Below are positions 1,201 to 30,712 of a stretch of 35,546 bases of DNA, piece by piece. The DNA lies in IMG/VR virus record IMGVR_UViG_2778261064_000019, one strand, 5' to 3'. Source of the stretch: a virus (lineage: Duplodnaviria > Heunggongvirae > Uroviricota > Caudoviricetes). The notes under the pieces were generated by a model, which was not told where the DNA came from, did not search any database, and saw nothing but the letters and a program-made list of their open reading frames with translations. Made by a program: the position numbers and the translations under genes. Position 1 is the first letter of the stretch; the number at the start of each line of letters is the position of its first letter.

Positions 1201-1203
1201 GTA

Positions 1204-1458
1204 CTATGCGGGGATCTTGGTACCAGAGCGCTTTGGGACTTTGGCCAGATTTTTCTGTACCGCGTTATCAATATGGTGATGGTTATTTTCCTGCCGTGCT
1301 TTGAGCCAGCGTTCCACTTCCTCTTTGTCCCACGCGACGGCGCGCTTCGTTAGCGCAAAACGTTTGGGAAACAGGCCTTTTTGCTCCAACGCATAAATCG
1401 TACTTTCAGAGAGTGGCACCATCTGTAAAAGCACGTTTTTTCTAATGGCAATTTTCAT
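1204..1458 (-). CDS. AlpA-family HTH regulator / excisionase-like protein
   Basis: 84-aa ORF convergent with int (3-bp gap). Segment STIYALEQKGLFPKRFALTKRAVAWDKEEVERWL resembles AlpA/phage regulatory protein family. Start may be the internal Met at 1422. Confidence 0.65.
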   Translation of the reverse strand: MKIAIRKNVLLQMVPLSESTIYALEQKGLFPKRFALTKRAVAWDKEEVERWLKARQENNHHHIDNAVQKNLAKVPKRSGTKIPA

Positions 1459-2269
1459 TGTTTATTCCTTTAATCCAAAGGCACTCAGTTCTGATAACAG
1501 ATCCTTTTTTACCAGCAGCGGCAGATTGCTTTGTCTCTTTACGCCAGCCGGTTAGCAAATCGTTATACATTTCGGTGTCGTAGCCGCTGATAACCACGCT
1601 TCCTTGTAACCGGGTGACGGTCTCCAGTAAGCGCAGGTGGGCACCATCGTCCATTTCGTGGCGATAATATTTGTTAGTCAGATTACGGGTGCTATGAACA
1701 TACGGCGGATCGACAAAATGCAGCGTGTCGGCGGCGTCATGATCCAGAATACACTGGATGGCATCGCGGTTTTCCACCAGAACCCCTTCAAAACGCTGAC
1801 CAACGGCGGCCAGATTATCGGGCATACGGCTCCAGATGTGTTGGGCCGTTCCACTGGCGCGTTTAGTGTCCAGCCGAAAGCCGGTAGTGCCTTTAGTTGC
1901 CCCGGCAGAACCGAAGCCCATCGTGGCGCGAATCACTAAACGCCTTGCCTGTTCAACAGAATTTTTCCCATAGCGATAGGCCGAAATAAACTCGGTGCGG
2001 GAATAGGGTGTCAGGCTGCAGGCTTCAACCAGTCTTTCGCGCAGTTGTGGGGTACGAAGAACGGCGAACAGGTTAACGACGTCGCCATCCAGATCGTTGT
2101 AAACCTCGGCGTAGCTACGTGGTTTTCTGAGCAGTACGCTGGCTGCACCGCCGAAGGGTTCCACATAGCATCTGTGGGCCGGAAAGTGGCTAATGATCCA
2201 CGGAGCTAGTCGCCACTTGCCGCCGTGGTAGCGGATTGCAGGGTGCTTAATCATCCAGTTTTTCTCCAC
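1442..2269 (-). CDS. DNA N6-adenine methyltransferase (Dam-like, orphan)
   Basis: 275-aa ORF with N-terminal AdoMet-binding motif YVEPFGGAASVLL and catalytic DPPY motif (FVDPPYVHSTRN). No adjacent restriction enzyme gene. Confidence 0.8.
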   Translation of the reverse strand: MEKNWMIKHPAIRYHGGKWRLAPWIISHFPAHRCYVEPFGGAASVLLRKPRSYAEVYNDLDGDVVNLFAVLRTPQLRERLVEACSLTPYSRTEFISAYRYGKNSVEQARRLVIRATMGFGSAGATKGTTGFRLDTKRASGTAQHIWSRMPDNLAAVGQRFEGVLVENRDAIQCILDHDAADTLHFVDPPYVHSTRNLTNKYYRHEMDDGAHLRLLETVTRLQGSVVISGYDTEMYNDLLTGWRKETKQSAAAGKKGSVIRTECLWIKGINNENCH

Positions 2270-2846
2270 GCCGTTCTACGTTCAGGTGTCGCCACTGCAC
2301 CGCAATCCGTTTCATCACCGCATTCCCCTCTGGGATCACCTCCTGCGGCTCCTTCATCAACATGACCCGCCCCCGAATAACGATCAGCGCTTGTTCCAGC
2401 AGGCCATAGTCCAGATAACAGAGATCGGGAATATCCAGTTGCCACACATAGCCATTCCATGCTGAAAGTAGCACTTGCGCGGCGGCGCGTCCGCCGCTGG
2501 TTTCTGTGAGCGCGATTTTGGCAAGTGTATTGACGGCTGCGCCATATTCCTCTGGCGTGACGCGGAGTTTCTGCTGGCTGTTATCTTCTTTTGCCAGCGT
2601 TAATAATCCAATCGGGTGTAATACGCCCAGCTCTTCCATCTTTTCTTTCAATGTTGCAGCTGTATTCCATCCAATTCTGAATTTGCGCTGCAGGCGGCTG
2701 ATACTGATAATGCCTTCCGCCTCGGCCAGTTCGACCGCTTTGGGATAGAGTTCATTGAGCCGATATTCGTAATCAGCGAAGGGCGCACCGCTATTCTCTG
2801 GCAGGCCAGAGAGTGTTTGTGAATTATTTCCAGAGGATTTCATCAT
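2247..2846 (-). CDS. Hypothetical protein with FtsK-gamma-like winged-helix segment
   Basis: 199-aa ORF in the same minus-strand gene string as primase and Dam. Segment ISISRLQRKFRIGWNTAATLKEKMEELGVL resembles the FtsK gamma DNA-binding domain, judged from memory only. Confidence 0.45.
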   Translation of the reverse strand: MMKSSGNNSQTLSGLPENSGAPFADYEYRLNELYPKAVELAEAEGIISISRLQRKFRIGWNTAATLKEKMEELGVLHPIGLLTLAKEDNSQQKLRVTPEEYGAAVNTLAKIALTETSGGRAAAQVLLSAWNGYVWQLDIPDLCYLDYGLLEQALIVIRGRVMLMKEPQEVIPEGNAVMKRIAVQWRHLNVERRGEKLDD

Positions 2847-2856
2847 AATTTCCTTT

Positions 2857-5514
2857 TTAACGTTGAAAAACCCAACACTTCACCGTCGCCGGGCGGCGCG
2901 GTGCGGCTGGGTAACGGCGGTTAAATTCAGCGTTGATGCCGCTGTTAACCGTTCTGACTTCAATAAACTTGTGGGTACGGCTGGTTTTTAGCACTCGCTT
3001 CAAATCGCTGATCGGCGGGATCTGCTGGCGGCGCTCGGTAGCCAGTTGAATAAAGTGGTTAAGGTTAACGGCGATAAGCTGTTCATCGCGCGAGTGGTTG
3101 AGCTGTGGTTCGTCGTCGCCATCGAGGAAGTCGAAAATATCCCAGAACTCCTGCACCAGAGGATGGTCGGCGCTGATGGCCTGTTGGCGCTCCAGACTGA
3201 GGCGGATAAACATTTCTCTGGTCGCCTGTAGCTGCTCTTCCGTGACCGGAATAACCAGCGCCAGCGCGTCGAGCAGCGCCATAAGCTGGGCGTGGTTTTT
3301 AATGATGCGGATATGGCGAATATCTGGGTGGGAGTGAAGTTGCTGCTCGTATAGCGGGATCTGACGGTTAACGCACTCCAGCACGGCCTGTTCCGCCAGC
3401 GCTGCCTTCAGCATAAAGCCGGAAAGCTGTTCTACCGGCAGGCGTTCGAGCTGCTCGGCAGCGACCTTGGTCTGAGTATTCTGGCCGCTGCGGTCGGTGT
3501 ACAGGTGAATAATACGTTCCAGCACCGGGTTAGAGGCGCTAACATCGGCGTTTTGCGCAATCACAATCGCGCCCCGGAACGGCGGTTCATAGGTCTCGTT
3601 GCCGCTGTTACGCAGACCGCGAGAACGCACCGACCGCCCGTTATAGGCGGTTTTCAGCTCTTCCCAATCAAAGCCACGCTGCTTTGCCCCCTCCTGATTA
3701 CGGTCACCCTCGATCAGCACCACCGGCATATTTGCTACCTGCGCAAAGTTGCGCGCGCGGGCGGCCAGCGTTGATTTAGACGGATCGAAACCTTCATAGT
3801 CGCGTCGGCCCAACAGTTTTCAGAGGAACTCTATCAGCGTGGTTTTACCGCTGCCGGGTTCGCCAACGATTTCCAGAAATGGAAAGCTCTTGTGCTTGTC
3901 GCGGATCTGTTCGGCAAACATCGTCCCAAACCAGTACGCCAGCGCCACAAACCCCTTTGCGCCAAACGCCTGCCAGAGTAGCTGGGGCCACTGGCTGTCC
4001 ATCTGTTTTAAATTGTCGTTCAGCGTCAGGCTGACCGACTGGTTCAGGCTTTTAAGGCTAAGTTTGCCCATGTCGAAGAAGTCTTCTTCGTTGAGTGTGT
4101 ACAGCCGACCATCGCGAACGGCCAGATCGTTGAACACGTAAGCGCGGTATTCTTTGCTGTAGCCGATAAAATCAGTGGTCTGGACAGTTTTGATTTTGGG
4201 AAGCTGCTTGAGCAGCAACTTATCTAACTGCTGACTGGTGCCGGTGAAGATGCCGCCCTGCGCGATATGCAGCAGGCGCTTTTTGAATTCTGAGCCGCTG
4301 GAAAGTTGGGAGCCGGTGAAGGTGTTTTTTATCGGTGGAGTGTCGTCGGGGAAGTTAATGCGAAAGTAATACCAGCTTTCGTCGGTAATGGTGTTGGCCT
4401 GATAGTAGAGGGTGGTCGGGTAGCAGTTGGCTATCTCAACAACGGCGGCTGACTCCTGTAGCGCTTTATGTTTGGCTTCTTCTTCGTCCAGCTCCTCTTT
4501 GCCGTTATACATCACGTTATCAAAGGCACGCATATAACGGTCAATATCCAGCTTGAACCAGTACAGGCGGCTGTCGAACTCGAAGTGAAACTCTTTGCGT
4601 TCGGTACGCTCATGCATCAGTAATGCTTTGGCATTCGGATTGGGAGCGATCAACAGTGAACCGTAGTAACGATATTTTTTAATCAGATCCGGGTTTAGCC
4701 GATCGCGCTGGTGCAAATCGTTCCAGTCCAGCTTGGTGCGGGAATAGGGCGTTTGTGCGGCGGTGGAAAGCCAGCCGTCGTCGCGGCTGCGTTTTACCCA
4801 GCGGCGGGTGTAATTCATGCCCGCTTTGTCGTTATCCAGCGCCCAGACCAGTAAAGGACGCTTTTTATCCACGAACAGCGCGGCCAGTTGGCTTAACGCC
4901 TGCGCCGGATAGTTGTTACAGGTCATCAGGGAAACGGCGGCAATGCCGTGGTGGTGCAGGGCGATAGCGTCAAAAATGCCCTCAACCAGCCAGATCTCCT
5001 GCTGTTCTTCCAGCTTAAGCGTTGGCAATTGCCACCATAGCCCGCTGTAAGCGCCGTGAAAATTGGCTTTGCGATCGCCGAAACGCTGTGGGCGGTCAAC
5101 GATCCGCTCCCACCACACGCCGTCAGCCAGCGGGAAACGCACAGTGGCCGAGCCGAGATCGCGCCGTGCGTCATAGTAGTTCTCTTGAGCGTAACAGTTA
5201 CGGAGCAGCGAAAGGTCAAAGCCGCGCATCTCGCGCAGGTAGGCATCGGCGGCGGCCTGTGGGTTTTCCGGGGTTGGGGGATATCTGTCTGACCAGCTTT
5301 CAAATAGATCCGGGTACACCTCTTTGATATGGATTTCGGCATTGCATTTATTCAGGCGACCGCAGCGCAGTACCCACGGGCTGATGGCGTAGGTGTACAG
5401 CTCTTTTTTCTGGCAGTCCGGGCAGACGCCCTGCCGCAGCCAGTCGCCCTGTTCTTTAAAGGAAAAATCGGCTAGCAGTCGCCGCGTAATTTCCTGATGA
5501 AGTTGTGGTTGCAT
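2857..5514 (-). pseudogene. P4 alpha-like primase-helicase interrupted by an in-frame TGA (fragments 3820..5514 and 2857..3813)
   Basis: The two ORFs are in the same frame, separated by a single TGA at 3820..3822 (translation ...GEPGSGKTTLIEFL*KLLGRRDYEGF...). N-terminal Cys-rich zinc-binding motifs (CPDCQKK, CGRLNKC) and a Toprim-like segment (LVEGIFDAIALHHHG); Walker A (GEPGSGKTT) sits just before the stop, and the helicase region continues after it. Confidence 0.6.
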
Positions 5515-5602: not shown

Positions 5603-5833
5603 TTACGCGATTTTCTGCTTTTGCAGAAATTGCCCGCGTGTGGATAGCGGTATGTGTATCTTAGGATTCGGGCAACCGCTGGGTACTACCGTTCCCATCA
5701 CGGTCTCCATCGCGATAAATGAAAACGAACAGTTAACGTTCTTGCACTGGTAATAGAGCTTACGTACCAGCGGTGACATATATTCGCTGCTGCGAATTAT
5801 CGCCTTACCGTCGCAGTGTGGGCATTTCATCAT
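5603..5833 (-). CDS. ogr: Ogr/Delta-family zinc-finger late-gene transcriptional activator
   Basis: MMKCPHCDGKAIIRSSE...YYQCKNVNCSFSF matches the Cys4 motif of P2 Ogr. Start set at ATG 5833 (AGGAG 7 nt upstream) rather than the longer ORF start at 5851. Monomer size (76 aa) is Ogr-like, not the duplicated P4 Delta. Confidence 0.85.
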   Translation of the reverse strand: MMKCPHCDGKAIIRSSEYMSPLVRKLYYQCKNVNCSFSFIAMETVMGTVVPSGCPNPKIHIPLSTRGQFLQKQKIA

Positions 5834-6156
5834 GTCCGATCTCCTTACCACTTTTAACTAACTGAAACACTAACGCTTTTCGTTAACGGACTGACGAAAT
5901 AGTGTGATGCCGTTCAAAAAAATGATTCTTGCCATGCTGGACATCGAACGGTTCTGCTCCAGCGCTAATGCTTACAGTTCCGCGATTTCAGCGGGGAGCA
6001 GACGCATTGCCACCGGTTTGTTCGACATCACCCCGCGGGGTGCTCGTGAGCGTAAGACGTTCTCATTTGTTTTCATGGTGGTATATTGTGGTTATTAACA
6101 TTACACAATCTATAATTCCCTCAATTGAGTGAATTGTCAATGGTAATTATATCCAA
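5834..6156. promoter_or_regulatory. Divergent intergenic control region between ogr (minus) and the XRE gene (plus)
   Basis: 323-bp non-coding gap between divergently transcribed genes. Contains a 14-bp perfect palindrome CACCCCGCGGGGTG (6029..6042), palindrome TCAATTGA (6121..6128), TATAAT (6111..6116) and TTGTCA (6135..6140). Promoter assignment is not resolved. Confidence 0.35.
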
Positions 6157-6495
6157 ATGAAAGAATTTGGCATCCGTTTGAAGGAAGAACGTATCCGACT
6201 TGGCCTTGATCAAGACGGCTTTGGACAACTTGGGGGCGTGAAGAAAAACGCACAAAGTAACTATGAGAATGGACTGCGCAAGCCGGACAGTGACTATCTT
6301 GCTGGCATAGCGGCAGCGGGAGTTGATGTTCTGTATGTTCTAACAGGCAACCGCACGCCTGTGGCTACGTTGTCCAGTAAAGAGAGTGTGTTGGTGGAGA
6401 ACTATCGTTCTGCTACGCCAGAACACCAGTCCACCCTTGACACGGTTAGCGCTGCGCTTGCGCAACCGGGAGTAGGGAAAGCAGCTAAGGGATAA
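6157..6495 (+). CDS. XRE-family helix-turn-helix regulator (candidate prophage repressor or cargo regulator)
   Basis: 112-aa ORF; N-terminal HTH pattern (IRLKEERIRLGLDQDGFGQLGGVKKNAQSNYENGLRKP) is typical of Cro/CI-type regulators. Divergent from the ogr-primase string, directly upstream of the AT-rich operon. Confidence 0.7.
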   Translation: MKEFGIRLKEERIRLGLDQDGFGQLGGVKKNAQSNYENGLRKPDSDYLAGIAAAGVDVLYVLTGNRTPVATLSSKESVLVENYRSATPEHQSTLDTVSAALAQPGVGKAAKG

Positions 6496-6535
6496 CGAGT
6501 AGAATGAATTTGGTTATTGTCTGTATGGAGGCAAA

Positions 6536-7108
6536 ATGAAGTTGAATAATCTGGTTGCTCTTTACAGGAACATGACAGAGCAAAAATTGGATAGGGTTAA
6601 ATTCCCATACAGACACAATAATTTACATTTTGATGTATTTTTCTTTATTGATGGAAAACCGTTTGAGCTTCTTTTCGGAGCATTAGGCGCTAATCTTTGC
6701 TTTCGTCTAAAAGTCGAGAAGGGATTCGTCATAAATCCTAATCTGGGAAGTGAGACTTATAAAGAATTATGCAAGGCGCTAGGTTTGAAATATGACCCTG
6801 CCAATCCATTTAGAACAAGTAAGTTTTTTGAAGATTTTGATGGGAAAATCCCTACATCGGTTACTGTTAAGAATAAGGCAAAATATACTGATATTGCTGT
6901 GCATGTCAGGGATGTTGAAGAAGCAGACAGAATATATTTCTGTGGATGGAAAAACAACAATGAAGAAAAGAGTCATGTTACTGAAGATAATTTAAAGAAA
7001 ACGAAAGAGTTTTTAGGGTATCAGGCTTTTCTTGTTTGTAAGGAAAAGAATATTAGCAGTAGATGGACTGATTTAGAAAATAAAGCAAAAGATTTTTATT
7101 TACCATAG
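6536..7108 (+). CDS. Hypothetical protein, AT-rich cargo operon gene 1
   Basis: 190-aa ORF with GGAGG-like RBS before the ATG. Strongly AT-biased codon usage unlike the flanking phage genes. No family recognised. Confidence 0.6.
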   Translation: MKLNNLVALYRNMTEQKLDRVKFPYRHNNLHFDVFFFIDGKPFELLFGALGANLCFRLKVEKGFVINPNLGSETYKELCKALGLKYDPANPFRTSKFFEDFDGKIPTSVTVKNKAKYTDIAVHVRDVEEADRIYFCGWKNNNEEKSHVTEDNLKKTKEFLGYQAFLVCKEKNISSRWTDLENKAKDFYLP

Positions 7109-7122
7109 GATTGTGAGGTTAT

Positions 7123-8271
7123 ATGTCTGATATTTCATTAGGGTGCGTGGTTGTTCATAGGTTGATAAAAGAGCAACATAAAGATTTCGATCACTCAAAA
7201 CCATATAGTCGCCGTGATACGGTTCTTGACCGAAATAATGAAATCGTAATTAAACTAGTGTCCAGTATAGCCGCATTGTATGGTAAAAAATCTAATAGCT
7301 CGCATTATGGTATATTTAATTTAGATGAAACACGCAGGGGGCCTTTTCCAGCGGAATTTGATAAATATCGGAATGATACATCCAAGAAGTTAGACGATGA
7401 ATTGTTTATAGGATTATCAAAAAATGTTATGCATCAGTTATATATTGAGGCAAAGGATCGACCTGCTGCATCAGGAGGATTACTTCTTTTTGCTGATTAT
7501 ATCAGTAAATCCGTGCGTTACTTTCTTATTGCAATGATTAAGCAAAAGGAAGGTATAGTTATTAGTGATAAATTAGAGCCAAAGGAGTTAGAGCATCTTG
7601 ATCTGGCAAAACTAAACCAGGCGGCACGAATAAACTATGATTTGTATGATAAATATATTTCCGCTGATGAGAATGAAAGACAGGATGTTAATTATTTAAG
7701 TTTTGTTAGTCCCAGTTCTAACCAGACAACTTCAGGGTATTTCATTACTGCCTTAGGTTGTGATAAAGGTAATACATCAACTAAAGCTACGAGTAATTTA
7801 ATTAATGAATCTTTTAACTTCTTCAGAAATCATCAAGAATTAAAGGATAATGCCCGTAAATTTAAAAATGAAATTATTGAGTATTTATTCGATTGTTCTG
7901 AAAATAACATTTCAGCTAAGCTCTCTGTTGTTAGTGAGATGGCGGCGAAGCATATGGTTAATTTAGAAGATGACATTAAAGATAAATTGTCAGAAGAATT
8001 ATATGCTCATTTGAATAGTGAAAGTATTCGTGTGCCTGTGGAATTTAGGGTAAGCAAATCAGTAGTTAAGAAAAACAGAAATATTAAATATACAAGTGAT
8101 AATGTTAATTTTGAGTTTAAATCTAGTTTACTAGGCAATACTCTTGATAATGAGATATGCTATAATAAGAAAACTGGACATTTAACTTTTACTCGGATTA
8201 CTCCTGAGAAAAAAAGTGAAATAGCTCAATTGCTTGATGAGTTAATAAAAGAAAGAAATAGCGAAAAATAA
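7123..8271 (+). CDS. YejK/NdpA-like (NA37 family) nucleoid-associated protein homologue, cargo gene 2
   Basis: 382-aa ORF, 14 bp after gene 1 with a GTGAGG RBS. Full-length pattern similarity to E. coli YejK as recalled: MSDISLGCVVVHRLIK vs MSLDINQIALHQLIK; ASGGLLLFADYISKSVRYFLIAMI vs [25 protein letters not shown]. Not verified by search. Confidence 0.6.
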   Translation: MSDISLGCVVVHRLIKEQHKDFDHSKPYSRRDTVLDRNNEIVIKLVSSIAALYGKKSNSSHYGIFNLDETRRGPFPAEFDKYRNDTSKKLDDELFIGLSKNVMHQLYIEAKDRPAASGGLLLFADYISKSVRYFLIAMIKQKEGIVISDKLEPKELEHLDLAKLNQAARINYDLYDKYISADENERQDVNYLSFVSPSSNQTTSGYFITALGCDKGNTSTKATSNLINESFNFFRNHQELKDNARKFKNEIIEYLFDCSENNISAKLSVVSEMAAKHMVNLEDDIKDKLSEELYAHLNSESIRVPVEFRVSKSVVKKNRNIKYTSDNVNFEFKSSLLGNTLDNEICYNKKTGHLTFTRITPEKKSEIAQLLDELIKERNSEK

Positions 8272-8282
8272 GGTTGCTTAAT

Positions 8283-8912
8283 ATGTCATGTTTTGAAACG
8301 GTTGTTGAGCTTTTCAGATATGTAGGGCGTCCTAAATTTGATGCTATTAATAATCGTTTTTCAGCAACTATTTCTTATGATGCTCATATATATGAACTCT
8401 TAGTTTCTTTGCAACCTCATACAGCGTGGGGAGAAATTGAAGAGATTGTCATTGATGATGTGGATATAGATGTTGATGATAGCCTTCCCGCTAAAGGAAC
8501 ATCAATAACACTGACAATCTCTATATCAACTGGAGCTAGTGAGTCATTTTTTATCGATATTAAAGATCTAATTCAAAAGTCTCCGATGTTAAATAGAGGT
8601 ATTTTAAGAAAGTCTTTTTACTTGGTTGAGGAAGATTTTTATTTTAATGAAGGAATGGTTGAGGGATTAGCAAAAATACCAGAACTATCTGTTTTAAAGA
8701 ATCTTTGTGATTTTATTTTATGTCTATCAAAAGTTGCACACTACAGCAATAGTAAAAGTGATGATGTATGCCATAAGTTAGTTTTCTTGAAAAATACTAA
8801 TGCTAAGTCATTACCTTTAATTATTGAAACTAATGTTGATTATTCACTTCTTTTAACAGGTATTAAGGATTTAAAAATCATCGAATCTTTTTCTGATGAA
8901 AAAAAGCTATAA
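8283..8912 (+). CDS. Hypothetical acidic protein, cargo gene 3
   Basis: ORF track starts at TTG 8274; the first ATG is at 8283, about 11 nt after the gene 2 stop. Contains acidic stretch EEIVIDDVDIDVDDS. No family recognised. Confidence 0.55.
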   Translation: MSCFETVVELFRYVGRPKFDAINNRFSATISYDAHIYELLVSLQPHTAWGEIEEIVIDDVDIDVDDSLPAKGTSITLTISISTGASESFFIDIKDLIQKSPMLNRGILRKSFYLVEEDFYFNEGMVEGLAKIPELSVLKNLCDFILCLSKVAHYSNSKSDDVCHKLVFLKNTNAKSLPLIIETNVDYSLLLTGIKDLKIIESFSDEKKL

Positions 8913-8956
8913 CGGATGATAATTATTTTGAGCGAAAAGGGATTTTCATTAATACG

Positions 8957-9538
8957 GTGGTCGATTTTCTTGAATCAATCGATGTAAAGAAACAGTTTCA
9001 TTTTTTATTCTGTGAGTGGGATGAATTTCTAAAACTATACCATAATAACCTCGGTGTATATCTTAGTGGTTTTTCATTTCATAAAGTAAGAAAGGAAGTG
9101 GCAGAGGCAGAAGCTAATTTAGCTGAGCGTTTTTCAAAAATAATGTCAGACATGATAGCTAAGCTTTTAGGTATTCCTGTTTCTTTGGTTGCTACTTTTG
9201 GCATGATAAAATTAAATACCCTGCCGGAAATGTTAGTGGTTTTTTTAGGTGTATTGCTCACGTCGATAATTATGTTTTTTATTGTAAGAAGTCAATACAC
9301 ACAGTTTAGGATGATTTGTGATGCTAAAGATATTATATTTTCCCCATTAGTGAAAAAATCTGTAGGTTATACAGAAGATTTGAAAAAATTAGTATGCAAT
9401 GCAAAGGATAATTTAGACAAAAATCAGGTCATGTTAAATCGTTACCTTCTTTTCTTTCAATGCTTATGCTGGATTCCGACAGCCTTAGGTGGTGGAATGA
9501 TCTTAATGGCTATTATGGTTCATTTAGGATTACTATAA
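8957..9538 (+). CDS. Predicted multi-pass membrane protein, cargo gene 4
   Basis: Hydrophobic segments IPVSLVATFGMI, MLVVFLGVLLTSIIMFFIV and YLLFFQCLCWIPTALGGGMILMAIMVHLGLL. Track start is a GTG at 8957, so the true start is uncertain. Stop codon overlaps the gpD stop convergently. Confidence 0.5.
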   Translation: MVDFLESIDVKKQFHFLFCEWDEFLKLYHNNLGVYLSGFSFHKVRKEVAEAEANLAERFSKIMSDMIAKLLGIPVSLVATFGMIKLNTLPEMLVVFLGVLLTSIIMFFIVRSQYTQFRMICDAKDIIFSPLVKKSVGYTEDLKKLVCNAKDNLDKNQVMLNRYLLFFQCLCWIPTALGGGMILMAIMVHLGLL

Positions 9539-14875: not shown

Positions 14876-16054
14876 TTACACGGTGGTGGCGATGGATTCA
14901 GCCAGATTGACCAGATAGCGGTCAGTGATGCGCTGGCGGAACATCAGGTTTTCCAGCGGCGGCACCGGGGTGTAGTCGTAGTCGATATACGCTTTACCCG
15001 CTTTCAGGATGTCCGGCGTGTTGGCGGCGGGATCGAACCATGCGGAGCCGTCGACGATGTAGCCGTTGCCTTTCAGTTCGCGGAATTTGGCGTTCACGCC
15101 TTCGATAATGTCGCGGAACAGAGAAGCGTGTTGCGGTTTATCTATCGCCCAGAAGTGGGCGTCGGCGATGGTATCCGCCAGCACCTGCGCGGTGCGGGTG
15201 TAGTTCTCAAAGGCAAACAGCGGATCGGTGCTGCAGGTGCGCGATCCCCAGAAGCGATAGCCGGCGTTGCAAATCAGCGTGGTGACGTCGTGGCTGTTGA
15301 GGTAATCCGAATCGGTGGCGGTGGACTGCAGATCCCAGAATACGCTGCGGGAAATGCCGGTCACGCCGTTGACGTCAACGTTGGACAGCGTTTTATGCCA
15401 GCCGGTTTCTTCATCAATTTTTGCACGCAGGCCCACGGCGCGGGCGGTGGCGTATAGGGTACGTTCGGCGGCAGCCTGTGTATCAAAGCCGACAAAATCC
15501 GGCCAGATAATCATCGCCTCTCGCGCACCTAGCTGATCGCGATACAGCACCGCCTCTTCTTTGGTCTGCGCGCCGAACGCCGACAGATAGCTGAAGGCGC
15601 GAAGCTGTTGTGAAATGCTGACCAGTTCGGTGGCGATGGGCAGAGAATCCAGCCCTGGTACCGCCAGAATGCGCGGTTTTATTTTCAGTTTGGTTTGCGA
15701 GTCCAGTAGCGCCTTCATGCCGGTGTATTTCCCGGCTGGCGTGCTGCCGCCGATGATATTGGCGGTGGTTTCGGCGGCGGAGTCACCTTCGGCTACGCGC
15801 ACGGCGACCACCACCGGCTGCGTCTGGTCGGCGATGGCATCCAGAGAGTGTGCCAGCGTACCGCTATCACCGGCTTTACCCAGCGCAGATCGCACGTCGG
15901 TTAACAGTACTGGGGTATCAAGGGGAAAGGTTTTTTCATCGGCATCTGAACCGGTACAGACAATGCCGATCACGGCAGTGGAAATGGTACGGATCGGGCG
16001 CACGCCTTCATTGATTTCAATAACGCGCGCGCCGTGGTGGTAGTCGGTTGCCAT
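14876..16054 (-). CDS. FI: Tail sheath protein (gpFI-like)
   Basis: Start set at ATG 16054 (MATDYHHGARVIEINEG..., GGAGG 8 nt upstream), matching the P2 FI N-terminus as recalled. The ORF track extends to 16141. Confidence 0.85.
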   Translation of the reverse strand: MATDYHHGARVIEINEGVRPIRTISTAVIGIVCTGSDADEKTFPLDTPVLLTDVRSALGKAGDSGTLAHSLDAIADQTQPVVVAVRVAEGDSAAETTANIIGGSTPAGKYTGMKALLDSQTKLKIKPRILAVPGLDSLPIATELVSISQQLRAFSYLSAFGAQTKEEAVLYRDQLGAREAMIIWPDFVGFDTQAAAERTLYATARAVGLRAKIDEETGWHKTLSNVDVNGVTGISRSVFWDLQSTATDSDYLNSHDVTTLICNAGYRFWGSRTCSTDPLFAFENYTRTAQVLADTIADAHFWAIDKPQHASLFRDIIEGVNAKFRELKGNGYIVDGSAWFDPAANTPDILKAGKAYIDYDYTPVPPLENLMFRQRITDRYLVNLAESIATTV

Positions 16055-16124
16055 GAGGCGAGCCTCCATCAGGTCAATAAATGACGATGGTGGCACAGAG
16101 CGAAAAGGGCGGTGACGGCTTCCA

Positions 16125-16147
16125 CTTGTAACCACTGGCACTACAAG
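16125..16147. promoter_or_regulatory. Dyad CTTGTA-N11-TACAAG upstream of FI (candidate Ogr-responsive late promoter element)
   Basis: Inverted repeat with imperfect extended arms (GGCTTCCACTTGTA / TACAAGCAGAAGCG, 16117..16155), 70-100 bp upstream of the FI start. Same half-sites and spacing at three other late-operon positions. Confidence 0.5.
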
Positions 16148-16159
16148 CAGAAGCGGTTT

Positions 16160-16918
16160 TTAATTCAGGATAATCAGTTCTGATGTGGTGCTGGCTGGCT
16201 TTCCACCTACGGTATAGCGAATCCCTACCGTTGAGAATGTCAGGCCGTGGAAGATATCGCGCATTTCCGGGATGTCGTTAACCGAGATAATCATCCGGCC
16301 CTGCATGGTGCGCGCCAGCTCTGCCATACGCTGGTACTGCTCAAGGCCAAATGGTACGCCGTAGCCTTCGGTTTTCCAGTATGGTGGGTCGCAGTAGAAC
16401 AGGGTATGCGGGCGGTCATAGCGGCGAATACAGTCGGCCCAGTCCAGATTTTCAATGCAGACGCGCGCCAGCCGCAGATGGGCGGCGGATAAATCCTCTT
16501 CCATACGCAGCAGGTTCAGGCGCGGCGGTGAGGTGGTGGCGGTACCGAACGTGCGACTTTCCACTTTGCCGCCGAATGCCAGCTTTTGCAGATAGTAGAA
16601 GCGCGCCGCGCGCTGGATATCGGTCAGCGTTTCTTCCGGGGTGATCTGGAGCCAGCGGTACATTTCGCGGCTGACCAGCGACCATTTAAACTGGCGGACA
16701 AACTCTTCTAAATGGTGCTGAAGTACGCGGTAGAGGTTGGTAACGTCACCGTTGATATCGTTCAGCACCTCGGCCTGTGCGGGCTGTTTCATAAAGAACA
16801 ACGCTGCCGCCCCGCAGAACGGTTCAACGTAGCAGCGGTGTTTGGGAAACAGTGGCAGAATGTGTTTTGCCAGCCTGCGCTTACCGCCGATCCACGGAAT
16901 AACGGGTAACGTATTCAA
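16160..16918 (-). CDS. DNA N6-adenine methyltransferase (Dam-like), second copy
   Basis: 252-aa ORF with YVEPFCGAAALF AdoMet motif and DPPY motif (FYCDPPYWKTEGYG). Sits between the tail fibre assembly gene and FI, the position of the P2 Z/fun locus. Confidence 0.8.
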   Translation of the reverse strand: MNTLPVIPWIGGKRRLAKHILPLFPKHRCYVEPFCGAAALFFMKQPAQAEVLNDINGDVTNLYRVLQHHLEEFVRQFKWSLVSREMYRWLQITPEETLTDIQRAARFYYLQKLAFGGKVESRTFGTATTSPPRLNLLRMEEDLSAAHLRLARVCIENLDWADCIRRYDRPHTLFYCDPPYWKTEGYGVPFGLEQYQRMAELARTMQGRMIISVNDIPEMRDIFHGLTFSTVGIRYTVGGKPASTTSELIILN

Positions 16919-17382
16919 ATTGTCAATTTTCCAGACCGACTGCTGACCAACGCATACAGCAGATTAGGAGACCAGCGCCAACTATCGCGCAGGTGCAGAA
17001 ATTCGGCGCAGAACTCGCTGCAAAACAGGCGTTCCTGTTTACCCTGACTGAGTAACACAAAACCCATGGCGCCCAGCCAGTCGTAACCTTTATCGTCGTG
17101 CTGACGAAAAAAGGTTTCCAGTGCCAGCGGATCGGCGTTGATCGGGAGTAAATCCCATTTCTCAATCGGCAGCGGCATTCGTTTGCTGCGCACGCCTTTA
17201 TCCCGTACCGATGATGAGTAACAGATAAACAGGCCATCCGGCAGGCGTTCGACCAGTTCGCAGTGAGAGTAAGGGCCGCGCGTGACCTGTCGCGTCAACC
17301 AGTCGGAGAGCCGGGCAAGGCTGAAAAAGCGTTCAGCCCGGCCACGGTAGAACGCCATGTAAACCTGACTCATGGTTGCCAT
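16915..17382 (-). CDS. Hypothetical protein (Z/fun-position cargo)
   Basis: 155-aa ORF translationally coupled to the neighbours (4-bp overlap with Dam, 13-bp overlap with the upstream gene). Cys/His-containing segments (CELVERL, LFCSEFCAEFLH); no family recognised. Confidence 0.5.
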   Translation of the reverse strand: MATMSQVYMAFYRGRAERFFSLARLSDWLTRQVTRGPYSHCELVERLPDGLFICYSSSVRDKGVRSKRMPLPIEKWDLLPINADPLALETFFRQHDDKGYDWLGAMGFVLLSQGKQERLFCSEFCAEFLHLRDSWRWSPNLLYALVSSRSGKLTI

Positions 17383-21199: not shown

Positions 21200-21799
21200 T
21201 TACTGCGGCCCTCCGGTATTGCTACCCCCGCGCTCTACGCCTGTGTGCGTGTGGGTATGAACGGTGACGCCGTTGGAGGTAAAACTGCCGCCGCTGTGGG
21301 TGTAAGCACCTTTAAGCGTGCCGCCTTTTTTAACCGACAGCGTGGCGGTTTCCAGATGCTGGGTGCAGACGACGAGCGGTGTATCCAGCGTGACGCGGGT
21401 GCTGGCTTCGACCAGTGCGGTCTTGATGCCGGTAGCTTTTAACGTGCTGGAGCGCGGATCATATTCAATCACCGCACCATCGGGGTAAACGCTATGGTGA
21501 ACCTGTTCATCCAGCAGCGGGGCGGGGTTGGCGTCAGAGTAAATGGCCGGAAGTGCCACGGCGGTGGTTAACTCACCGCTTAAACAGAGCAGTAACACCT
21601 GTTCGCCTGTTGATGGCCGCCACCACGTCCGGGCATCACCGGCGCGTAGCGTCAGCCACGGTATCCAGTTGGTGGTCAGTTCACCAGTGTGAATGCGTAC
21701 TCGATCGCCCTTCACCTCTTCAACGGTGCCGGTACGGATCAGGTTTTCAATGCGCCGGTGCAGCTCGGCGAGGTTGGCTGGGTGGTTTGCGTCGCTCAT
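21200..21799 (-). CDS. V: Baseplate spike/assembly protein gpV-like
   Basis: 199-aa ORF, first gene of the V-W-J-I-H string, preceded by a dyad element. Confidence 0.8.
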   Translation of the reverse strand: MSDANHPANLAELHRRIENLIRTGTVEEVKGDRVRIHTGELTTNWIPWLTLRAGDARTWWRPSTGEQVLLLCLSGELTTAVALPAIYSDANPAPLLDEQVHHSVYPDGAVIEYDPRSSTLKATGIKTALVEASTRVTLDTPLVVCTQHLETATLSVKKGGTLKGAYTHSGGSFTSNGVTVHTHTHTGVERGGSNTGGPQ

Positions 21800-21843
21800 G
21801 CCGGAATCATTGGGATTCGCGGGCGAAGAGGGAAGGGCTAAGG

Positions 21844-21866
21844 CTTGTAGGATAATGGGCTACAAG
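21844..21866. promoter_or_regulatory. Dyad CTTGTA-N11-TACAAG upstream of gpV (candidate late promoter element)
   Basis: Inverted repeat CTTGTAG-N9-CTACAAG about 50-65 bp upstream of the gpV ATG. Confidence 0.5.
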
Positions 21867-21869
21867 TAA

Positions 21870-21891
21870 AACGCCCCTGAGTAGGGGCGTT
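21870..21891 (-). terminator. Possible hairpin terminator after hicB
   Basis: Stem AACGCCCCT / AGGGGCGTT with a 4-nt loop just downstream of the hicB stop on the minus strand. The following run is only weakly T-rich (TTACTTG). Confidence 0.35.
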
Positions 21892-21905: not shown

Positions 21906-22241
21906 TTAACCGTGCGCAGCCTTCATCAGTGTATCGTTAATCCACTGGTTAACGCTTTTACCGGAGACTTCTGCCGCAACGTTAATGGCAGAGTGAATTT
22001 CAGGTGGAATACGCAGGCTGATTTTTCCGCTGGCCGGACGCAACGGCTCCCGGCCCCGTTCCTCGCAGTAAGCCAGATAGTCGTCTACCGCCTCTTCAAA
22101 CGCTTTACGCAGATCGGCAACATTATCGGCATGAAAGCCAATGACATCCCGAATGCCTGCAACGTGACCAACAATGCATTGATCTTCATCGCTGTATTCA
22201 ATTTTTGCGGCATAGCCTCTATATGTCATGGTATTCATCAT
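21906..22241 (-). CDS. hicB: HicB-family antitoxin
   Basis: 111-aa ORF 4 bp-overlapped with the upstream hicA-like gene. C-terminal RHH-like segment (KISLRIPPEIHSAINVAAEVSGKSVNQWINDTL). Confidence 0.75.
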   Translation of the reverse strand: MMNTMTYRGYAAKIEYSDEDQCIVGHVAGIRDVIGFHADNVADLRKAFEEAVDDYLAYCEERGREPLRPASGKISLRIPPEIHSAINVAAEVSGKSVNQWINDTLMKAAHG

Positions 22242-22501
22242 GGTGTTACCCCTACAGCTTCAAGGAATGTTCTGGCATCGCGAACCTGATAGGCTTTCGC
22301 TTCTTTTTCCGGGTGTGGACGATGAAATGAAGCCACAACCTGATTAATTTCAAACCTGACGCGGGAACCGTTTCCTTCCGTAGCAATAGCCCCCAAAGCA
22401 ATAAATAAGGCTTCTATTTTTCGCCATTCCAGCGTGACAGGTGTTGGCGTAGAAAAAACAGCTTGTAAGGTTTTTTTATGTTTGGCGCTTAACGTATTCA
22501 T
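22238..22501 (-). CDS. hicA: HicA-family toxin (mRNA interferase)
   Basis: 87-aa ORF with GS..RF.......FHRPHP.KE pattern consistent with the HicA fold, in hicA-hicB order. Confidence 0.65.
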   Translation of the reverse strand: MNTLSAKHKKTLQAVFSTPTPVTLEWRKIEALFIALGAIATEGNGSRVRFEINQVVASFHRPHPEKEAKAYQVRDARTFLEAVGVTP

Positions 22502-24902: not shown

Positions 24903-25288
24903 TTGCGTCCCCTTAAAAAGTCGAGCAGTTGACCGGGGTTATCCAGTTGTCGGATGGCCCATAGCAGCGCCTTGACGGTAAGCGCCGATGAGAGCAGCGC
25001 CCCGATACCGGGGGAGACTTTTTCCGTCAGATGTTGCGGCAGATATCCGGCGACCAGTGCAGTGAACAGGTCGGCGGTCAGCAGGCCGATCACAAACGCC
25101 ACGCAGAAGAAAATGATGCGCAGGAACAGGCCGATCTCTTTTTGCGAAATCACCAGCAGCAGCGCGCCACACAATGCGCCGAGCACCACCGGAGCCTGTA
25201 GCGTCGGGAACAGCGTGGCAATGGAGAATGCGCTTACGGAAGCGGCGACGACGGTGCCGGTTACGGGTTCGTTCATAGTCAGTCCCAC
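24899..25288 (-). CDS. Holin-like membrane protein (gpY position)
   Basis: 129-aa ORF with several transmembrane segments, directly after gpX. Confidence 0.6.
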   Translation of the reverse strand: MGLTMNEPVTGTVVAASVSAFSIATLFPTLQAPVVLGALCGALLLVISQKEIGLFLRIIFFCVAFVIGLLTADLFTALVAGYLPQHLTEKVSPGIGALLSSALTVKALLWAIRQLDNPGQLLDFLRGRK

Positions 25289-25482
25289 AGGTTGATTCGT
25301 TGACGTTCGGCGGCGGGAGCCTGTTCAGGTACGTTCACCGCCGTACCGTGCGGCAGGCGCAGCGGCAGTTCGCATAGGCGCGGGTTGTCGCGGTAAAGCC
25401 GTTCGACAATCCCGGCAGTGCGCCCGAAGGTGCGCCAGCAGAGCTGGTCGAGCGTTTCGTTTTGCAGGCTATAGACAATCAT
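25279..25482 (-). CDS. X: Tail protein X (gpX-like)
   Basis: 67-aa ORF, the same size as P2 X, heading the lysis cassette. Confidence 0.75.
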   Translation of the reverse strand: MIVYSLQNETLDQLCWRTFGRTAGIVERLYRDNPRLCELPLRLPHGTAVNVPEQAPAAERQRINLWD

Positions 25483-25554
25483 GGTGTTTCCCGCGCGGCG
25501 TCAGGTGATGCGGGGATGGTGGCACAGGGGCGGGAAGTGAAGGGAAGGCTTCCG

Positions 25555-25577
25555 CTTGTAACTGAGGACAGTACAAG
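25555..25577. promoter_or_regulatory. Dyad CTTGTA-N11-TACAAG with 13-bp extended arms upstream of gpX
   Basis: Near-perfect inverted repeat GGCTTCCGCTTGTA-N11-TACAAGCGGAAGCG (25547..25585). The surrounding ~70 bp is near-identical to the element upstream of FI. Confidence 0.5.
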
Positions 25578-25596
25578 CGGAAGCGATTGGCGAGGG

Positions 25597-25917
25597 CTAT
25601 GCCTCGTCGCTGTCGGTATTGATGATTTTCAGTTCAGCGGACTTCTGGAGCTGGATCAGCGCCGGGATCAGAAGCGCGGTAGCCGACAGGCCGTGCCCTA
25701 ACTGGCACAGGCTTTCAGCGGAGAATTCCAGCACGTTGCTGTCGGCAAAGGAGACGAAGGTTTTACCCAGAAAATGCAGGCCGTGACATAGCCCGGCATA
25801 GCACTCTTCGCTGCTGTTGGCCAGTTGCAGAGTATCGTCGGCGTTCAGGTGTGAAATATCCAGCTTGCGGATCGCGTCCGCCAGTTCAGAGGACAGAATA
25901 TTGGTTTCAGGCACCAT
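25597..25917 (-). CDS. Hypothetical protein
   Basis: 106-aa ORF, last of three tightly coupled small ORFs between the Doc module and gpX. No family recognised. Confidence 0.4.
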   Translation of the reverse strand: MVPETNILSSELADAIRKLDISHLNADDTLQLANSSEECYAGLCHGLHFLGKTFVSFADSNVLEFSAESLCQLGHGLSATALLIPALIQLQKSAELKIINTDSDEA

Positions 25918-26083
25918 GGCGCACCTCCAGCGGTTTGCAGGAGACGAACACCAGCGGGAAACCCGCCAGCAGGCCGCGAGCCTCTGTCTCTGTTGTCGCC
26001 AGTACGGATACCAGACGCAGTGGCTGGATCTCGCGCAGCAGGCGGTTGGAACGGGCGTTCAGGAAGGTGTAGAGCTTAGGCAT
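25910..26083 (-). CDS. Hypothetical small protein (57 aa)
   Basis: Not in the ORF track (below 60 aa). ATG at 26081..26083 preceded by GGAGGTGAA; translates MPKLYTFLNARSNRLLREIQPLRLVSVLATTETEARGLLAGFPLVFVSCKPLEVRHGA; stop overlaps the next ATG. Confidence 0.3.
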
Positions 26084-26315
26084 GGTTCACCTCCTCTACC
26101 GGGGTGCTACGTGGGGGATTGAACGACTGAGCGATAACGCTCAGTGCCTGCTTACCTTCGGGATGCGCAAGACGGTAGTAAGTTAACAGGACTTGCTCCT
26201 GTGGGCTGAGATCGTCCCACGTGAGAGTTGTGTTACTATTAGCGGTAGCCATAGCATTACCTCGATTAATGTTGTGGTTAGATGCCTTGGCAGTGTTCGC
26301 GCACTGTCGGGGCAT
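26076..26315 (-). CDS. Hypothetical protein
   Basis: 79-aa ORF (possibly starting at internal Met, MATANSNTTL...). First of the three coupled small ORFs. Confidence 0.35.
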   Translation of the reverse strand: MPRQCANTAKASNHNINRGNAMATANSNTTLTWDDLSPQEQVLLTYYRLAHPEGKQALSVIAQSFNPPRSTPVEEVNHA

Positions 26316-26394
26316 TGTTATTTATGTCATGTGATAGTAATGTGTCATCACACAGTACTACATTAACCTGAGTGTGATTTAGGTGTCAATACAC

Positions 26395-26562
26395 ATGAAT
26401 GAAAGAAGAGGAAATCCTCCGTTTCAGTTTCGACTCGATCCTGAACTGAGAAACGCGATGGAAGAAGCTAAAAAGCAAGATGGTGATGAATCACTGGCTG
26501 CGTGGATTAAGCGAATTATCAGAAAAGAGCTTCAGTCACGGGGTATAGAACCAAAAGATTAG
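26395..26562 (+). CDS. Arc/MetJ-type ribbon-helix-helix DNA-binding protein
   Basis: 55-aa ORF not in the track. FQFRLDPELRNAMEEAKKQDGDESLAAWIKRIIRKEL follows the Arc-like beta-strand/helix pattern. Inverted repeat TGTGAT-N10-ATCACA (26331..26352) lies upstream. Confidence 0.55.
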   Translation: MNERRGNPPFQFRLDPELRNAMEEAKKQDGDESLAAWIKRIIRKELQSRGIEPKD

Positions 26563-26608
26563 CAGATAGGTATATACTTTGAATAAAGAGTATTAGAGGT
26601 AAAAAATA

Positions 26609-26797
26609 ATGGCGAAGAATAGCAGTCCTGCCAGCCGATACGGTATCAAGGTCGTAAAAAGAGACAGTATGAGCGGGCAGTTTGTACCCGTCGAAATGAA
26701 GCTGGACGGCCCGGAAGGTGAGCGTGTGATTAAAAAGTCGGCAGAGCGTATTTATGCCAGACACAACAAAGTCATTAAGGCGCTGGCTAACCGATGA
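26609..26797 (+). CDS. Putative antitoxin partner of Doc (family unassigned)
   Basis: 62-aa ORF whose stop overlaps the doc ATG (ATGA), the classic coupled toxin-antitoxin arrangement. Sequence does not resemble Phd as recalled. Confidence 0.45.
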   Translation: MAKNSSPASRYGIKVVKRDSMSGQFVPVEMKLDGPEGERVIKKSAERIYARHNKVIKALANR

Positions 26798-27171
26798 TTG
26801 ATGCACATTTGGTGATTGGAATTCACGACTTTATTCTTGCTCATGAGCCGGGATTGGTTGGTTATCAGGATGCTGGCCGGGTCGAGGCAACACTGGCACG
26901 GGTGGATAACCGTATTCTGTATGAGCAGATGAATGATATTTTCCAGATCGCCGCATCTTATGCGGTTGCCATCGCCAGAGGGCACGTTTTTGCTGATGCC
27001 AACAAGCGAACGGCACTGGTGACGGCGTTGACATACCTTGATATGCAGGGTGTGAACCTCAAGCGAACACAAAAGCTGGAAGATATTATGGTGGATGTGG
27101 CTGAGGGAACGCTAAATCTGGATGATTTAGCCGATATTTTCTATACCCTTAGTGATGTAAATGCTTCCTGA
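26794..27171 (+). CDS. doc: Doc (death-on-curing) / Fic-family toxin
   Basis: 125-aa ORF with the Fic/Doc active-site motif HVFADANKRTAL. Confidence 0.8.
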   Translation: MIDAHLVIGIHDFILAHEPGLVGYQDAGRVEATLARVDNRILYEQMNDIFQIAASYAVAIARGHVFADANKRTALVTALTYLDMQGVNLKRTQKLEDIMVDVAEGTLNLDDLADIFYTLSDVNAS

Positions 27172-27176
27172 CGTTA

Positions 27177-27201
27177 CAGCCCGACAGATCGGGCTGTTTT
27201 T
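27177..27201 (+). terminator. Rho-independent terminator after doc
   Basis: 8-bp stem CAGCCCGA / TCGGGCTG with a 4-nt loop, followed by TTTTT. Confidence 0.6.
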
Positions 27202-27203
27202 AA

Positions 27204-27440
27204 TTATGCCGCCTCAATACCCGCGTTGGTTAACATATAGTGGCCCCAGTGGTTTTTTTTCAGGTAACCGGCCAGTTCCATCTGCGTCACAATAAATTCA
27301 GCGTTAACCATTTCTATACCTGCGTAGTCGGCCAGATCGCGCAGCGGCCATGTGCTGCGAACGCCGACGCTAACTATGGTGTCTCTGATGCGGCGAGCGG
27401 TATCGGTCATTGGGCGGGTTCTGGCTGCCTGAATAGTCAT
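27204..27440 (-). CDS. Hypothetical protein
   Basis: 78-aa ORF downstream of gpL on the minus strand. No family recognised. Confidence 0.4.
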   Translation of the reverse strand: MTIQAARTRPMTDTARRIRDTIVSVGVRSTWPLRDLADYAGIEMVNAEFIVTQMELAGYLKKNHWGHYMLTNAGIEAA

Positions 27441-27556
27441 GGTATTTTCCCCTGTAGATTCTTTCTGTTAGGTCAGACACTAACTCTGGTGGGGAAGGGG
27501 CATCCAGCGTTCAGATGAGGCGATACGGTGATGCGCATCGCATATCCGTACTCTTT

Positions 27557-30689: not shown

Positions 30690-30712
30690 CTTGTAATCAT
30701 CCGGGTTACAAG
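30690..30712. promoter_or_regulatory. Dyad CTTGTA-N11-TACAAG in the O/P divergent intergenic region
   Basis: Inverted repeat at the centre of the 155-bp gap between the divergent O and P genes. Confidence 0.5.

Follow-up and report, generated by a model that had tools for sequence, protein, structure and literature searches.

A predicted additional late promoter before gene X and structure-like arm extensions at two activator sites of a P2-like prophage

Two modules of a P2-like prophage, one upstream of the tail gene X and one upstream of the tail sheath gene FI, are best read from their sequence and position as Ogr-type late promoters, with predicted activator binding, start sites and activator dependence. 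The site before X (PX) is a predicted extra, fifth late promoter without counterpart in P2 or 186, and at both sites (PX and PF) the palindrome of the activator is lengthened by 8 bp per arm, an extension that behaves like structure and not like a recognition sequence in its covariation and its dependence on context. The identity as Ogr-type late promoters is itself ordinary, known biology; new here are the predicted fifth promoter before X and the structure-like extension of the arms, a modest variation on P2 biology. The whole explanation, in which two Ogr-switched late promoters, one of them additional, share an origin and carry arms that act as an RNA hairpin, appears to us rather probable.

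The DNA analyzed (the window: the whole stretch of 35,546 nt, IMG/VR record IMGVR_UViG_2778261064_000019) represents a P2-like prophage whose late genes occupy the minus strand in the order O, N, M, L, a 2-kb accessory island, X, two holins, endolysin, a spanin gene, R, S, hicAB, V, W, J, I, H, G, an ORF and a methyltransferase gene, FI, FII, E, T, U and D; P and Q diverge from O in the opposite direction. The following genes and regions bear on the two modules:
25279..25482, minus strand: tail protein X gene, the first that PX would serve (PHROGs search and RefSeq annotation of the identical E. coli prophage)
14876..16054, minus strand: tail sheath gene FI with its ATG at 16054 (392 aa), first of the FI-FII-E-T-U-D operon
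25597..27556, both strands: moron island from the L stop codon (27557) to the PX hairpin, with small minus-strand ORFs and a plus-strand operon
25597..25917, minus strand: phrog_19484 gene, in the moron island
16160..16918, minus strand: DNA methyltransferase gene in the same direction as FI; 4 nt separate its stop codon from the PF hairpin
5603..5851, minus strand: Ogr/Delta-family zinc-finger activator gene (Pfam PF04606, E = 1e-19)

In tblastn, FI aligned from residue 1 to phage sheath proteins at ~70% identity. The translation of the Ogr homologue, which probably starts at the methionines of MMKCPHC, contains a CX2CX22CX4C motif and shares 42% identity with Ogr of P2.

The moron island includes a toxin-antitoxin operon opposite to the late genes (26383-27171, plus strand; a small YlcI/YnfO-family ORF, phd and doc), with a terminator at 27176-27197. 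Just upstream of this operon, a plus-strand hairpin with a 16-bp stem and a T-rich tail (26281-26316) overlaps the 5′ end of the minus-strand ORF 26076-26315. A conserved, overlapping pair of small ORFs (~58-68 aa, followed by the phrog_19484 product of 103-115 aa) was located directly upstream of the hairpin in every relative examined (25597-26083 on the minus strand of the window; 3371-3878 in L217, 386-884 in L218, 9371-9887 in L240 and 2638-3184 in L207), and in Photorhabdus it sits beside convergent tail-fibre genes. A search for a remnant hairpin where the moron island adjoins L found none. The hicA-hicB pair lies between S and V (21906-22501, minus strand). A D12-class methyltransferase and a 155-aa ORF (16160-17382, minus strand) occupy the position of fun(Z) in P2; they run in the direction of the late genes, which fun(Z) does not, and apparently constitute the tail of the V operon. 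The early region (1-5514) is not P2-like. No A, B, C or cox of P2 can be recognised in it, and its products include an integrase, AlpA, a Dam methylase, an FtsK-gamma/DUF7673 protein and a protein resembling a Toprim primase. The prophage has a mosaic make-up, its late region being of the P2 type and its replication and integration module of another kind. Between ogr and D, an island of low G+C content (6157-9538, plus strand; 30-43% compared with ~57% for the phage) contains five plus-strand ORFs, encoding an HTH protein, a DUF6037 protein, an NA37 nucleoid-associated-like protein and two unknowns, and is possibly a cargo or defence locus.

The identical region is annotated in E. coli 24A16CRGN010 and is carried by only 4 of 5426 complete E. 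coli genomes. Edwardsiella ictaluri, Salmonella enterica and a few contigs from metagenomes and IMG/VR contain relatives, and two Photorhabdus species contain partial ones. The ~57% G+C of this prophage in an E. coli chromosome, its rarity in E. coli and its closest relatives in Edwardsiella and Salmonella suggest a recent transfer between genera. When either module region was compared by blastn with sequenced phage isolates, distant mode included, no match was obtained, and the comparisons were therefore drawn from prophages and metagenomes. No Rfam family was detected in the whole window at gathering thresholds or in the two modules at E ≤ 1. A loose 14-base pattern for the dyad gave mostly chance hits among the matches listed in viral contigs and was replaced by tighter patterns; the loci L236-L239 found with the latter were chance matches.

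The elements of the two modules, all on the minus strand, are as follows:
25547..25585, minus strand: PX extended dyad/hairpin, sense CGCTTCCGCTTGTA-ctgtcctcagt-TACAAGCGGAAGCC; core 25555-25577, centre 25566
25515..25527, minus strand: PX 13-nt box, sense CTGTGCCACCATC; putative extended -10 of T-15, G-14 and c, then CACCAT (25521-25516)
25499..25506, minus strand: ACCTGACG in the predicted PX leader, common to PF by alignment
16117..16155, minus strand: PF extended dyad/hairpin, sense CGCTTCTGCTTGTA-gtgccagtggt-TACAAGTGGAAGCC; core 16125-16147, centre 16136
16086..16098, minus strand: PF 13-nt box, putative extended -10 with CACCAT (16092-16087) ending 49 nt from the centre
16067..16074, minus strand: ACCTGATG of the predicted PF leader; a GGAGG-type ribosome-binding site and the start codon of FI come next

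An earlier note on this DNA had described these two regions as near-identical promoter modules, and a check against the window returned the same coordinates and sequences. The 13-nt box (GATGGTGGCACAG) is exact at 25515-25527 and 16086-16098 and has no other exact copy in the window; a scan of the whole window added four further matches, each with 2 mismatches, and none of 100 shuffles gave at least six matches. The extended dyads at 25547-25585 and 16117-16155 have the 14-nt arms and 11-nt loop that had been noticed, the variable segment of about 18 nt measures 19 nt from dyad to box before X and 18 nt before FI, and the 35-45 nt given from box to start codon is about right, with 33 nt (X) and 32 nt (FI) from the proximal edge to the A of the start codon and ~45 nt from the distal edge. 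The term near-identical was an overstatement: only 54 of 72 positions match over this span, at a level to be set against the 55-58% that unrelated flanks reach under the same aligner. Identity between PX and PF is modular, being complete in the core (12/12) and the box (13/13), high in the outer arms (14/16) and low in the loop (5/11), and only 17 of the 33 nt that follow the dyad (spacer and box) agree. The pairwise alignment extended the likeness past the coordinates of the note into the leader, where both modules have an ACCTGAYG motif; the similarity is not confined to the dyad.

The note had overlooked the Ogr homologue, the minus-strand orientation of the genes and the distinctive character of the additional 8 bp on each arm. 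Because the genes are on the minus strand, the box lies downstream of the dyad, as a -10 region would, and it reads as an extended -10 element (TG-c-CACCAT), which would put the dyad centre near -55. At PX the hexamer ends 50 nt from the dyad centre, and from the spacing in P2 and 186 we infer a transcription start at ~25507-25509. The PX dyad is conserved in 9 distinct relatives, and the positions GTGCCA..AT are invariant in all 12 aligned PX and PF variants while the spacer drifts.

The P2 late promoters PP, PO, PV and PF depend on Ogr, which acts at a site centred near -55; promoters of this type have no recognisable -35 and require the activator together with the alpha subunit of RNA polymerase. 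In the window, CTTGTA-N11-TACAAG occurs four times against 0 expected (16125, 21844, 25555 and 30690), namely before FI, before V, between the divergent genes O and P, and before X, and the relaxed form TGTA-N11-TACA (equivalent to TGT-N13-ACA) finds the same four sites and no more. Two of these sites, and the terminator next to one of them, complete the list of elements:
21844..21866, minus strand: PV activator dyad, core only, with 6-bp arms; centre 21855
21870..21891, minus strand: canonical intrinsic terminator after hicB, a 9-bp stem and then a T run, abutting the PV dyad
30690..30712, serving both strands: single dyad common to the divergent PO and PP, with 8-bp arms; centre 30701, 84 nt from the O start codon and 72 nt from the P start codon

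In the P2 record, pO and pP share one annotated activator site and V and FI are each preceded by another, and the 186 record annotates B-protein sites in the O/P-equivalent region and before the sheath gene, so the sites at FI, V and O/P match annotated Ogr/B sites in position. The distances are also kept:
dyad centre to FI (sheath) start codon: window 82 nt, P2 83 nt, 186 82.5 nt
dyad centre to V start codon (21799 in the window): window 56 nt, P2 55.5 nt

In our reading of the sequence, each of the five promoters has a -10-like hexamer that ends 48-50 nt from the centre of the dyad, namely CACCAT for FI and X, GACCAT for O, AATGAT for V and TACGCT for P. The same spacing is found at P2 pF (GAAAAT) and 186 pJ (GACAAT), both of which have annotated starts. 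A scan with the sigma-70 consensus called no promoter at any of the four sites. The V transcript of P2 is annotated as beginning at the V start codon, and by analogy the V mRNA of the window is probably leaderless too, the centre-to-start spacing being kept in relatives (21799-21866, minus strand). Sites of the form TGT-N13-ACA at a comparable distance from FI are widespread (~50 diverse P2-like contigs).

It is the number of sites, the synteny with P2 and 186, the -10 spacing and the presence of an Ogr gene that point to Ogr-type late promoters. The resemblance to P2 comprises sites at the same genes and distances, a single O/P site, a -10 at ~50 nt from the centre and an Ogr-family activator with the CX2CX22CX4C motif; P2 differs in its N12 spacing compared with N13 here, in a core that is a far poorer palindrome, in the overlap of L and X without a promoter where the window has a fifth site, and in lacking the 8-bp arm extensions that the window has at two sites. 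For P2, four late promoters with the consensus TGT-N12-ACA have been described (PMC3931495). The late promoters of phiRSA1 and phiRSY1 comprise four sites of TGTTGT-N13-ACAACA, 50-90 nt from the start codons and without a sigma-70-type promoter (PMC5694545); these phages share with the window the N13 spacing and a sheath protein that is ~70% identical, and differ in the half-site (TGTTGT versus CTTGTA) and in that no site before X is reported for them. The promoter part of the cassette proposed in the earlier note is thereby well supported by comparison, in position, geometry and a partner protein of the P2/186 Ogr type, but the dyad cannot serve as a mark of duplication, its core being the four-copy regulatory site.

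Read as RNA, the extended dyads of PX and PF are predicted to form stable, G+C-rich stem-loops with stems of 13-14 bp that begin 4-12 nt past the upstream stop codons. The sense RNA of PX (101-nt stretch) folds at -27.7 kcal/mol (z = -6.0), and that of PF (101-nt stretch) at -24.5 kcal/mol (z = -2.15) in sense and -21.1 kcal/mol (z = +0.34) in antisense orientation. No U run was found on the sense strand after the stem (tails UUCCCUUC/UUCCCUUCAC at PX and GUCACCGC/GUCACCGCCC at PF), and a terminator consensus scan called the real terminator before PV and neither of these hairpins, so that a canonical intrinsic terminator is unlikely. Like intrinsic terminators and the stabilizing hairpins at the 3′ ends of morons, these are stable hairpins 4-12 nt after a co-directional accessory gene with compensatory pairing; they differ from intrinsic terminators in an 11-nt loop that is larger than typical and in the missing U tract. 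The layout at 186 pJ is similar, with a co-directional tail-fibre assembly gene, a transcript-ending hairpin, an activator site and the sheath gene 82.5 nt from its centre. There, however, terminator t45 and the B site are separate elements 10 nt apart, whereas in the window one palindrome, without U tract, appears to serve both roles. Read on the plus strand, the PF hairpin (16142-16165) runs into GGTTTTTAATTC, which resembles the tail of a terminator for antisense transcription; this T run is partly the complement of the stop-codon region of the methyltransferase gene and is absent in the L014 variant.

With arms of only 6-8 bp at PV and PO/PP, the outer 8 bp do not belong to the activator site that the promoters have in common. 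Covariation, context dependence and retention in Photorhabdus suggest that in these outer arms pairing rather than sequence is kept. Across 14 arm sequences, 92% of cells pair compared with 33-44% in slid controls, and 5 pairs are changed on both sides, a number reached in 0 of 500 shuffles; the both-side changes come from two lineages only, L014 and Photorhabdus. The PF arms of contig IMGVR_UViG_3300013182_000039 (CGCTATTGCTTGTA..TACAAGCAATAGCG) are perfectly paired with 3-4 compensated pairs, and this contig retains GCTTCCG..CGGAAGC at PX and an unchanged methyltransferase-module-FI layout. In the window itself, the PF arms differ from those of PX at two positions, which gives U.G and G.U pairs on the sense strand. 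Changes on a single side of the arms are mostly G.U-compatible on the sense strand, although as a test of an RNA role this asymmetry (~4-5 sense versus 1 event) is not significant and is a hint only. In Photorhabdus the hairpin lies 3′ of the phrog_19484 gene with a G-C pair compensated to A-U, next to a decayed box and ahead of a convergent gene.

Context points in the same direction as covariation. Arms are extended only at sites directly adjoined by a co-directional gene that has no canonical terminator, namely at PF, at PX and at PV of Salmonella L240, where arms of 8 bp are followed by a bulge and 5 bp of different sequence; short arms are found at divergent sites (PO/PP, and PV of L209, L217 and L218) and at sites preceded by a canonical terminator (PV in the window and in L241). 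We claim this rule within the close clade only, with ~2 independent origins of extended arms, PX and PF being related by descent. A comparison of arm length with the orientation of the upstream gene at ~75 diverse P2-like FI loci was too noisy to be used (heuristic ORF calls, G+C-rich DNA and strict Watson-Crick pairing), and a search of these loci with a covariance model of the hairpin brought up no additional extended module.

That the outer arms act as an RNA hairpin in the read-through transcript and insulate the promoter is a proposal we put forward tentatively in view of the missing U tract, as possible and somewhat short of probable. Its nearest competitor places the arms at the DNA level only, as a longer symmetric site for the activator, perhaps in the form of a higher-order oligomer at promoters in heavy use, or for a second symmetric protein. 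The perfect symmetry of the DNA, the symmetric double changes in L014, which a dimeric protein site could tolerate, and the missing U tract after the hairpin all fit such a site, as do long palindromes of 12-15 bp at the FI site of unrelated P2-like contigs (L182 and L196, for example), which indicate that extended symmetry may sometimes reflect protein binding. Nevertheless, the outer arms of PF (CGCTATTG/CAATAGCG) and PX (AGCTTCCG/CGGAAGCC) differ within one phage while each is self-complementary, so that one protein could not read both; PV and PO/PP make do with arms of 6-8 bp in the same phages; the single-side changes, mostly to G.U on the sense strand, break the symmetry of the DNA; and the arms are retained in Photorhabdus where the promoter is not. 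We thus consider a purely DNA-level role unlikely and continue with the RNA hairpin as the preferred reading of the outer arms.

The position of PX is where the window departs from the known phages. In P2 and 186, L and X overlap, X belongs to the O operon and there is no PX, and the same L/X overlap without PX is seen with more distant X homologues (L219 and L220, 64-67% identity). The module precedes X in the clade with an X identity of at least 78%, a small group of Escherichia, Salmonella and Edwardsiella, in which PX is conserved: among 9 distinct PX relatives the functional positions GTGCCA..AT are invariant and the spacer is variable. Most clade members have accessory genes between L and the module, including toxin-antitoxin pairs, some of them on the opposite strand. 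In Edwardsiella ictaluri the moron island is absent, and L is followed within 7 nt by the hairpin, the box and X; homology between arrangements with and without the island stops at the 5′ edge of the module. In the literature consulted, in which the older P2 and 186 papers are incompletely covered, no report of a late promoter before X was found.

The hairpin could alternatively be the 3′ end signal of the upstream moron cassette, with PX as a decaying relic and X and the lysis genes read from PO. The phrog_19484 gene always precedes the hairpin in most relatives and the Photorhabdus pair sits away from any late gene, as a moron signal would predict, yet the Edwardsiella ictaluri arrangement combines L, hairpin, box and X without the moron. 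Nor does PX look like a relic: TG, A-11 and T-7 of its box are invariant in 9 PX variants while the adjacent spacer drifts, and its core dyad matches the three other activator sites exactly. Moreover, the plus-strand operon and terminator in the L-X island would interfere with read-through from PO. Taken together, this makes a moron signal with a relic promoter very unlikely, and a functional PX remains the preferred reading.

The simplest reading of the sequences is that PX and PF are of common origin, through duplication or recombination of a ~100-bp cassette from hairpin to leader. PX is closer to PF than to PV or PO/PP in the outer arms, the box and the leader (in the outer arms, PX and PF agree at 14/16 positions, and all other promoter pairs in the window at 4-10/16), and it is this greatest resemblance, together with the universal position of PF, that argues for a shared origin. 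The divergence of loop and spacer suggests that the duplication would be old. The duplication or recombination that the earlier note had proposed thus appears plausible, as PX is absent where L and X overlap and is closest to PF.

Convergence, or neutral correction of the palindromes by quasi-palindrome template switching, would account for the likeness without common descent. The same core and a good -10 are required at both promoters, inverted repeats can become perfect through template-switch repair in the absence of selection, and loop (5/11) and spacer are barely above random likeness. Against convergence, the outer arms are free to vary, as L014 shows, but PX and PF of the window are identical at 14/16 positions and the arms are identical in the Edwardsiella and Salmonella relatives except for C/T at position 7 of arm 2; the likeness also takes in non-required positions of the 13-nt box, the leader motif ACCTGAYG and a CTGCC in the loops of several variants. 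Neutral correction leaves unexplained why the extension is found beside co-directional genes without a terminator. We regard both as improbable in comparison with a common origin of PX and PF. A host-wide small repeat (REP/BIME- or MITE-like) that landed before X and FI would supply a stable hairpin in more than one copy but is excluded by copy number and scarcely deserves consideration, with the extended form present twice in the window, a single PX region in each of the 4 E. coli genomes (out of 5426 complete ones) that carry it, no Rfam match, and, among 185,579 species genomes, the extended dyad only in Edwardsiella ictaluri (both matches being PX and PF of one P2-like prophage), two Photorhabdus species (matches adjoining phage tail-fibre genes) and a few unrelated single matches.

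In the mechanism that we propose, the phage's own Ogr-family activator would bind the core CTTGTA-N11-TACAAG ~55 nt upstream of the transcription start and bring in the host RNA polymerase at a weak promoter that relies mainly on the extended -10 box. The FI module would be the ordinary PF promoter, and PX would split the O-N-M-L-X-lysis-R-S operon of the P2 type, so that X, the lysis genes, R and S would remain under late control whatever inserts between L and X. The additional 8 bp per arm would be dispensable for recognition by the activator and would let the site fold into a 13-14-bp hairpin in RNA coming from the co-directional upstream gene. Such a hairpin may end, pause or stabilize the upstream transcript and screen the promoter from incoming polymerases, whether by pausing, by weak or factor-assisted termination or by protection of the 3′ end. 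Going one step further, the ~100-bp cassette might combine a terminator or insulator with an activator-dependent promoter and be a unit that can be copied to a new position, in this case between L and X, and offers accessory genes a safe landing pad upstream, an idea that we consider on the doubtful side. If true, the late and lysis genes would be shielded from moron transcription in the lysogen and their late expression guaranteed, and the cargo of the landing pad would be toxin-antitoxin pairs and a methyltransferase.

Late control in P2 is the textbook case of four activator-dependent promoters. The clade described here would add a fifth before X and the lysis genes, at the place where accessory genes accumulate, and PX would show how a phage rewires an operon to tolerate cargo. 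If the outer arms act in RNA, they would be a compact example of one palindrome that is bound by protein as DNA and gives a structural signal once transcribed, which may aid the annotation of transcription units in prophages and provide a design idea for insulated inducible promoters.
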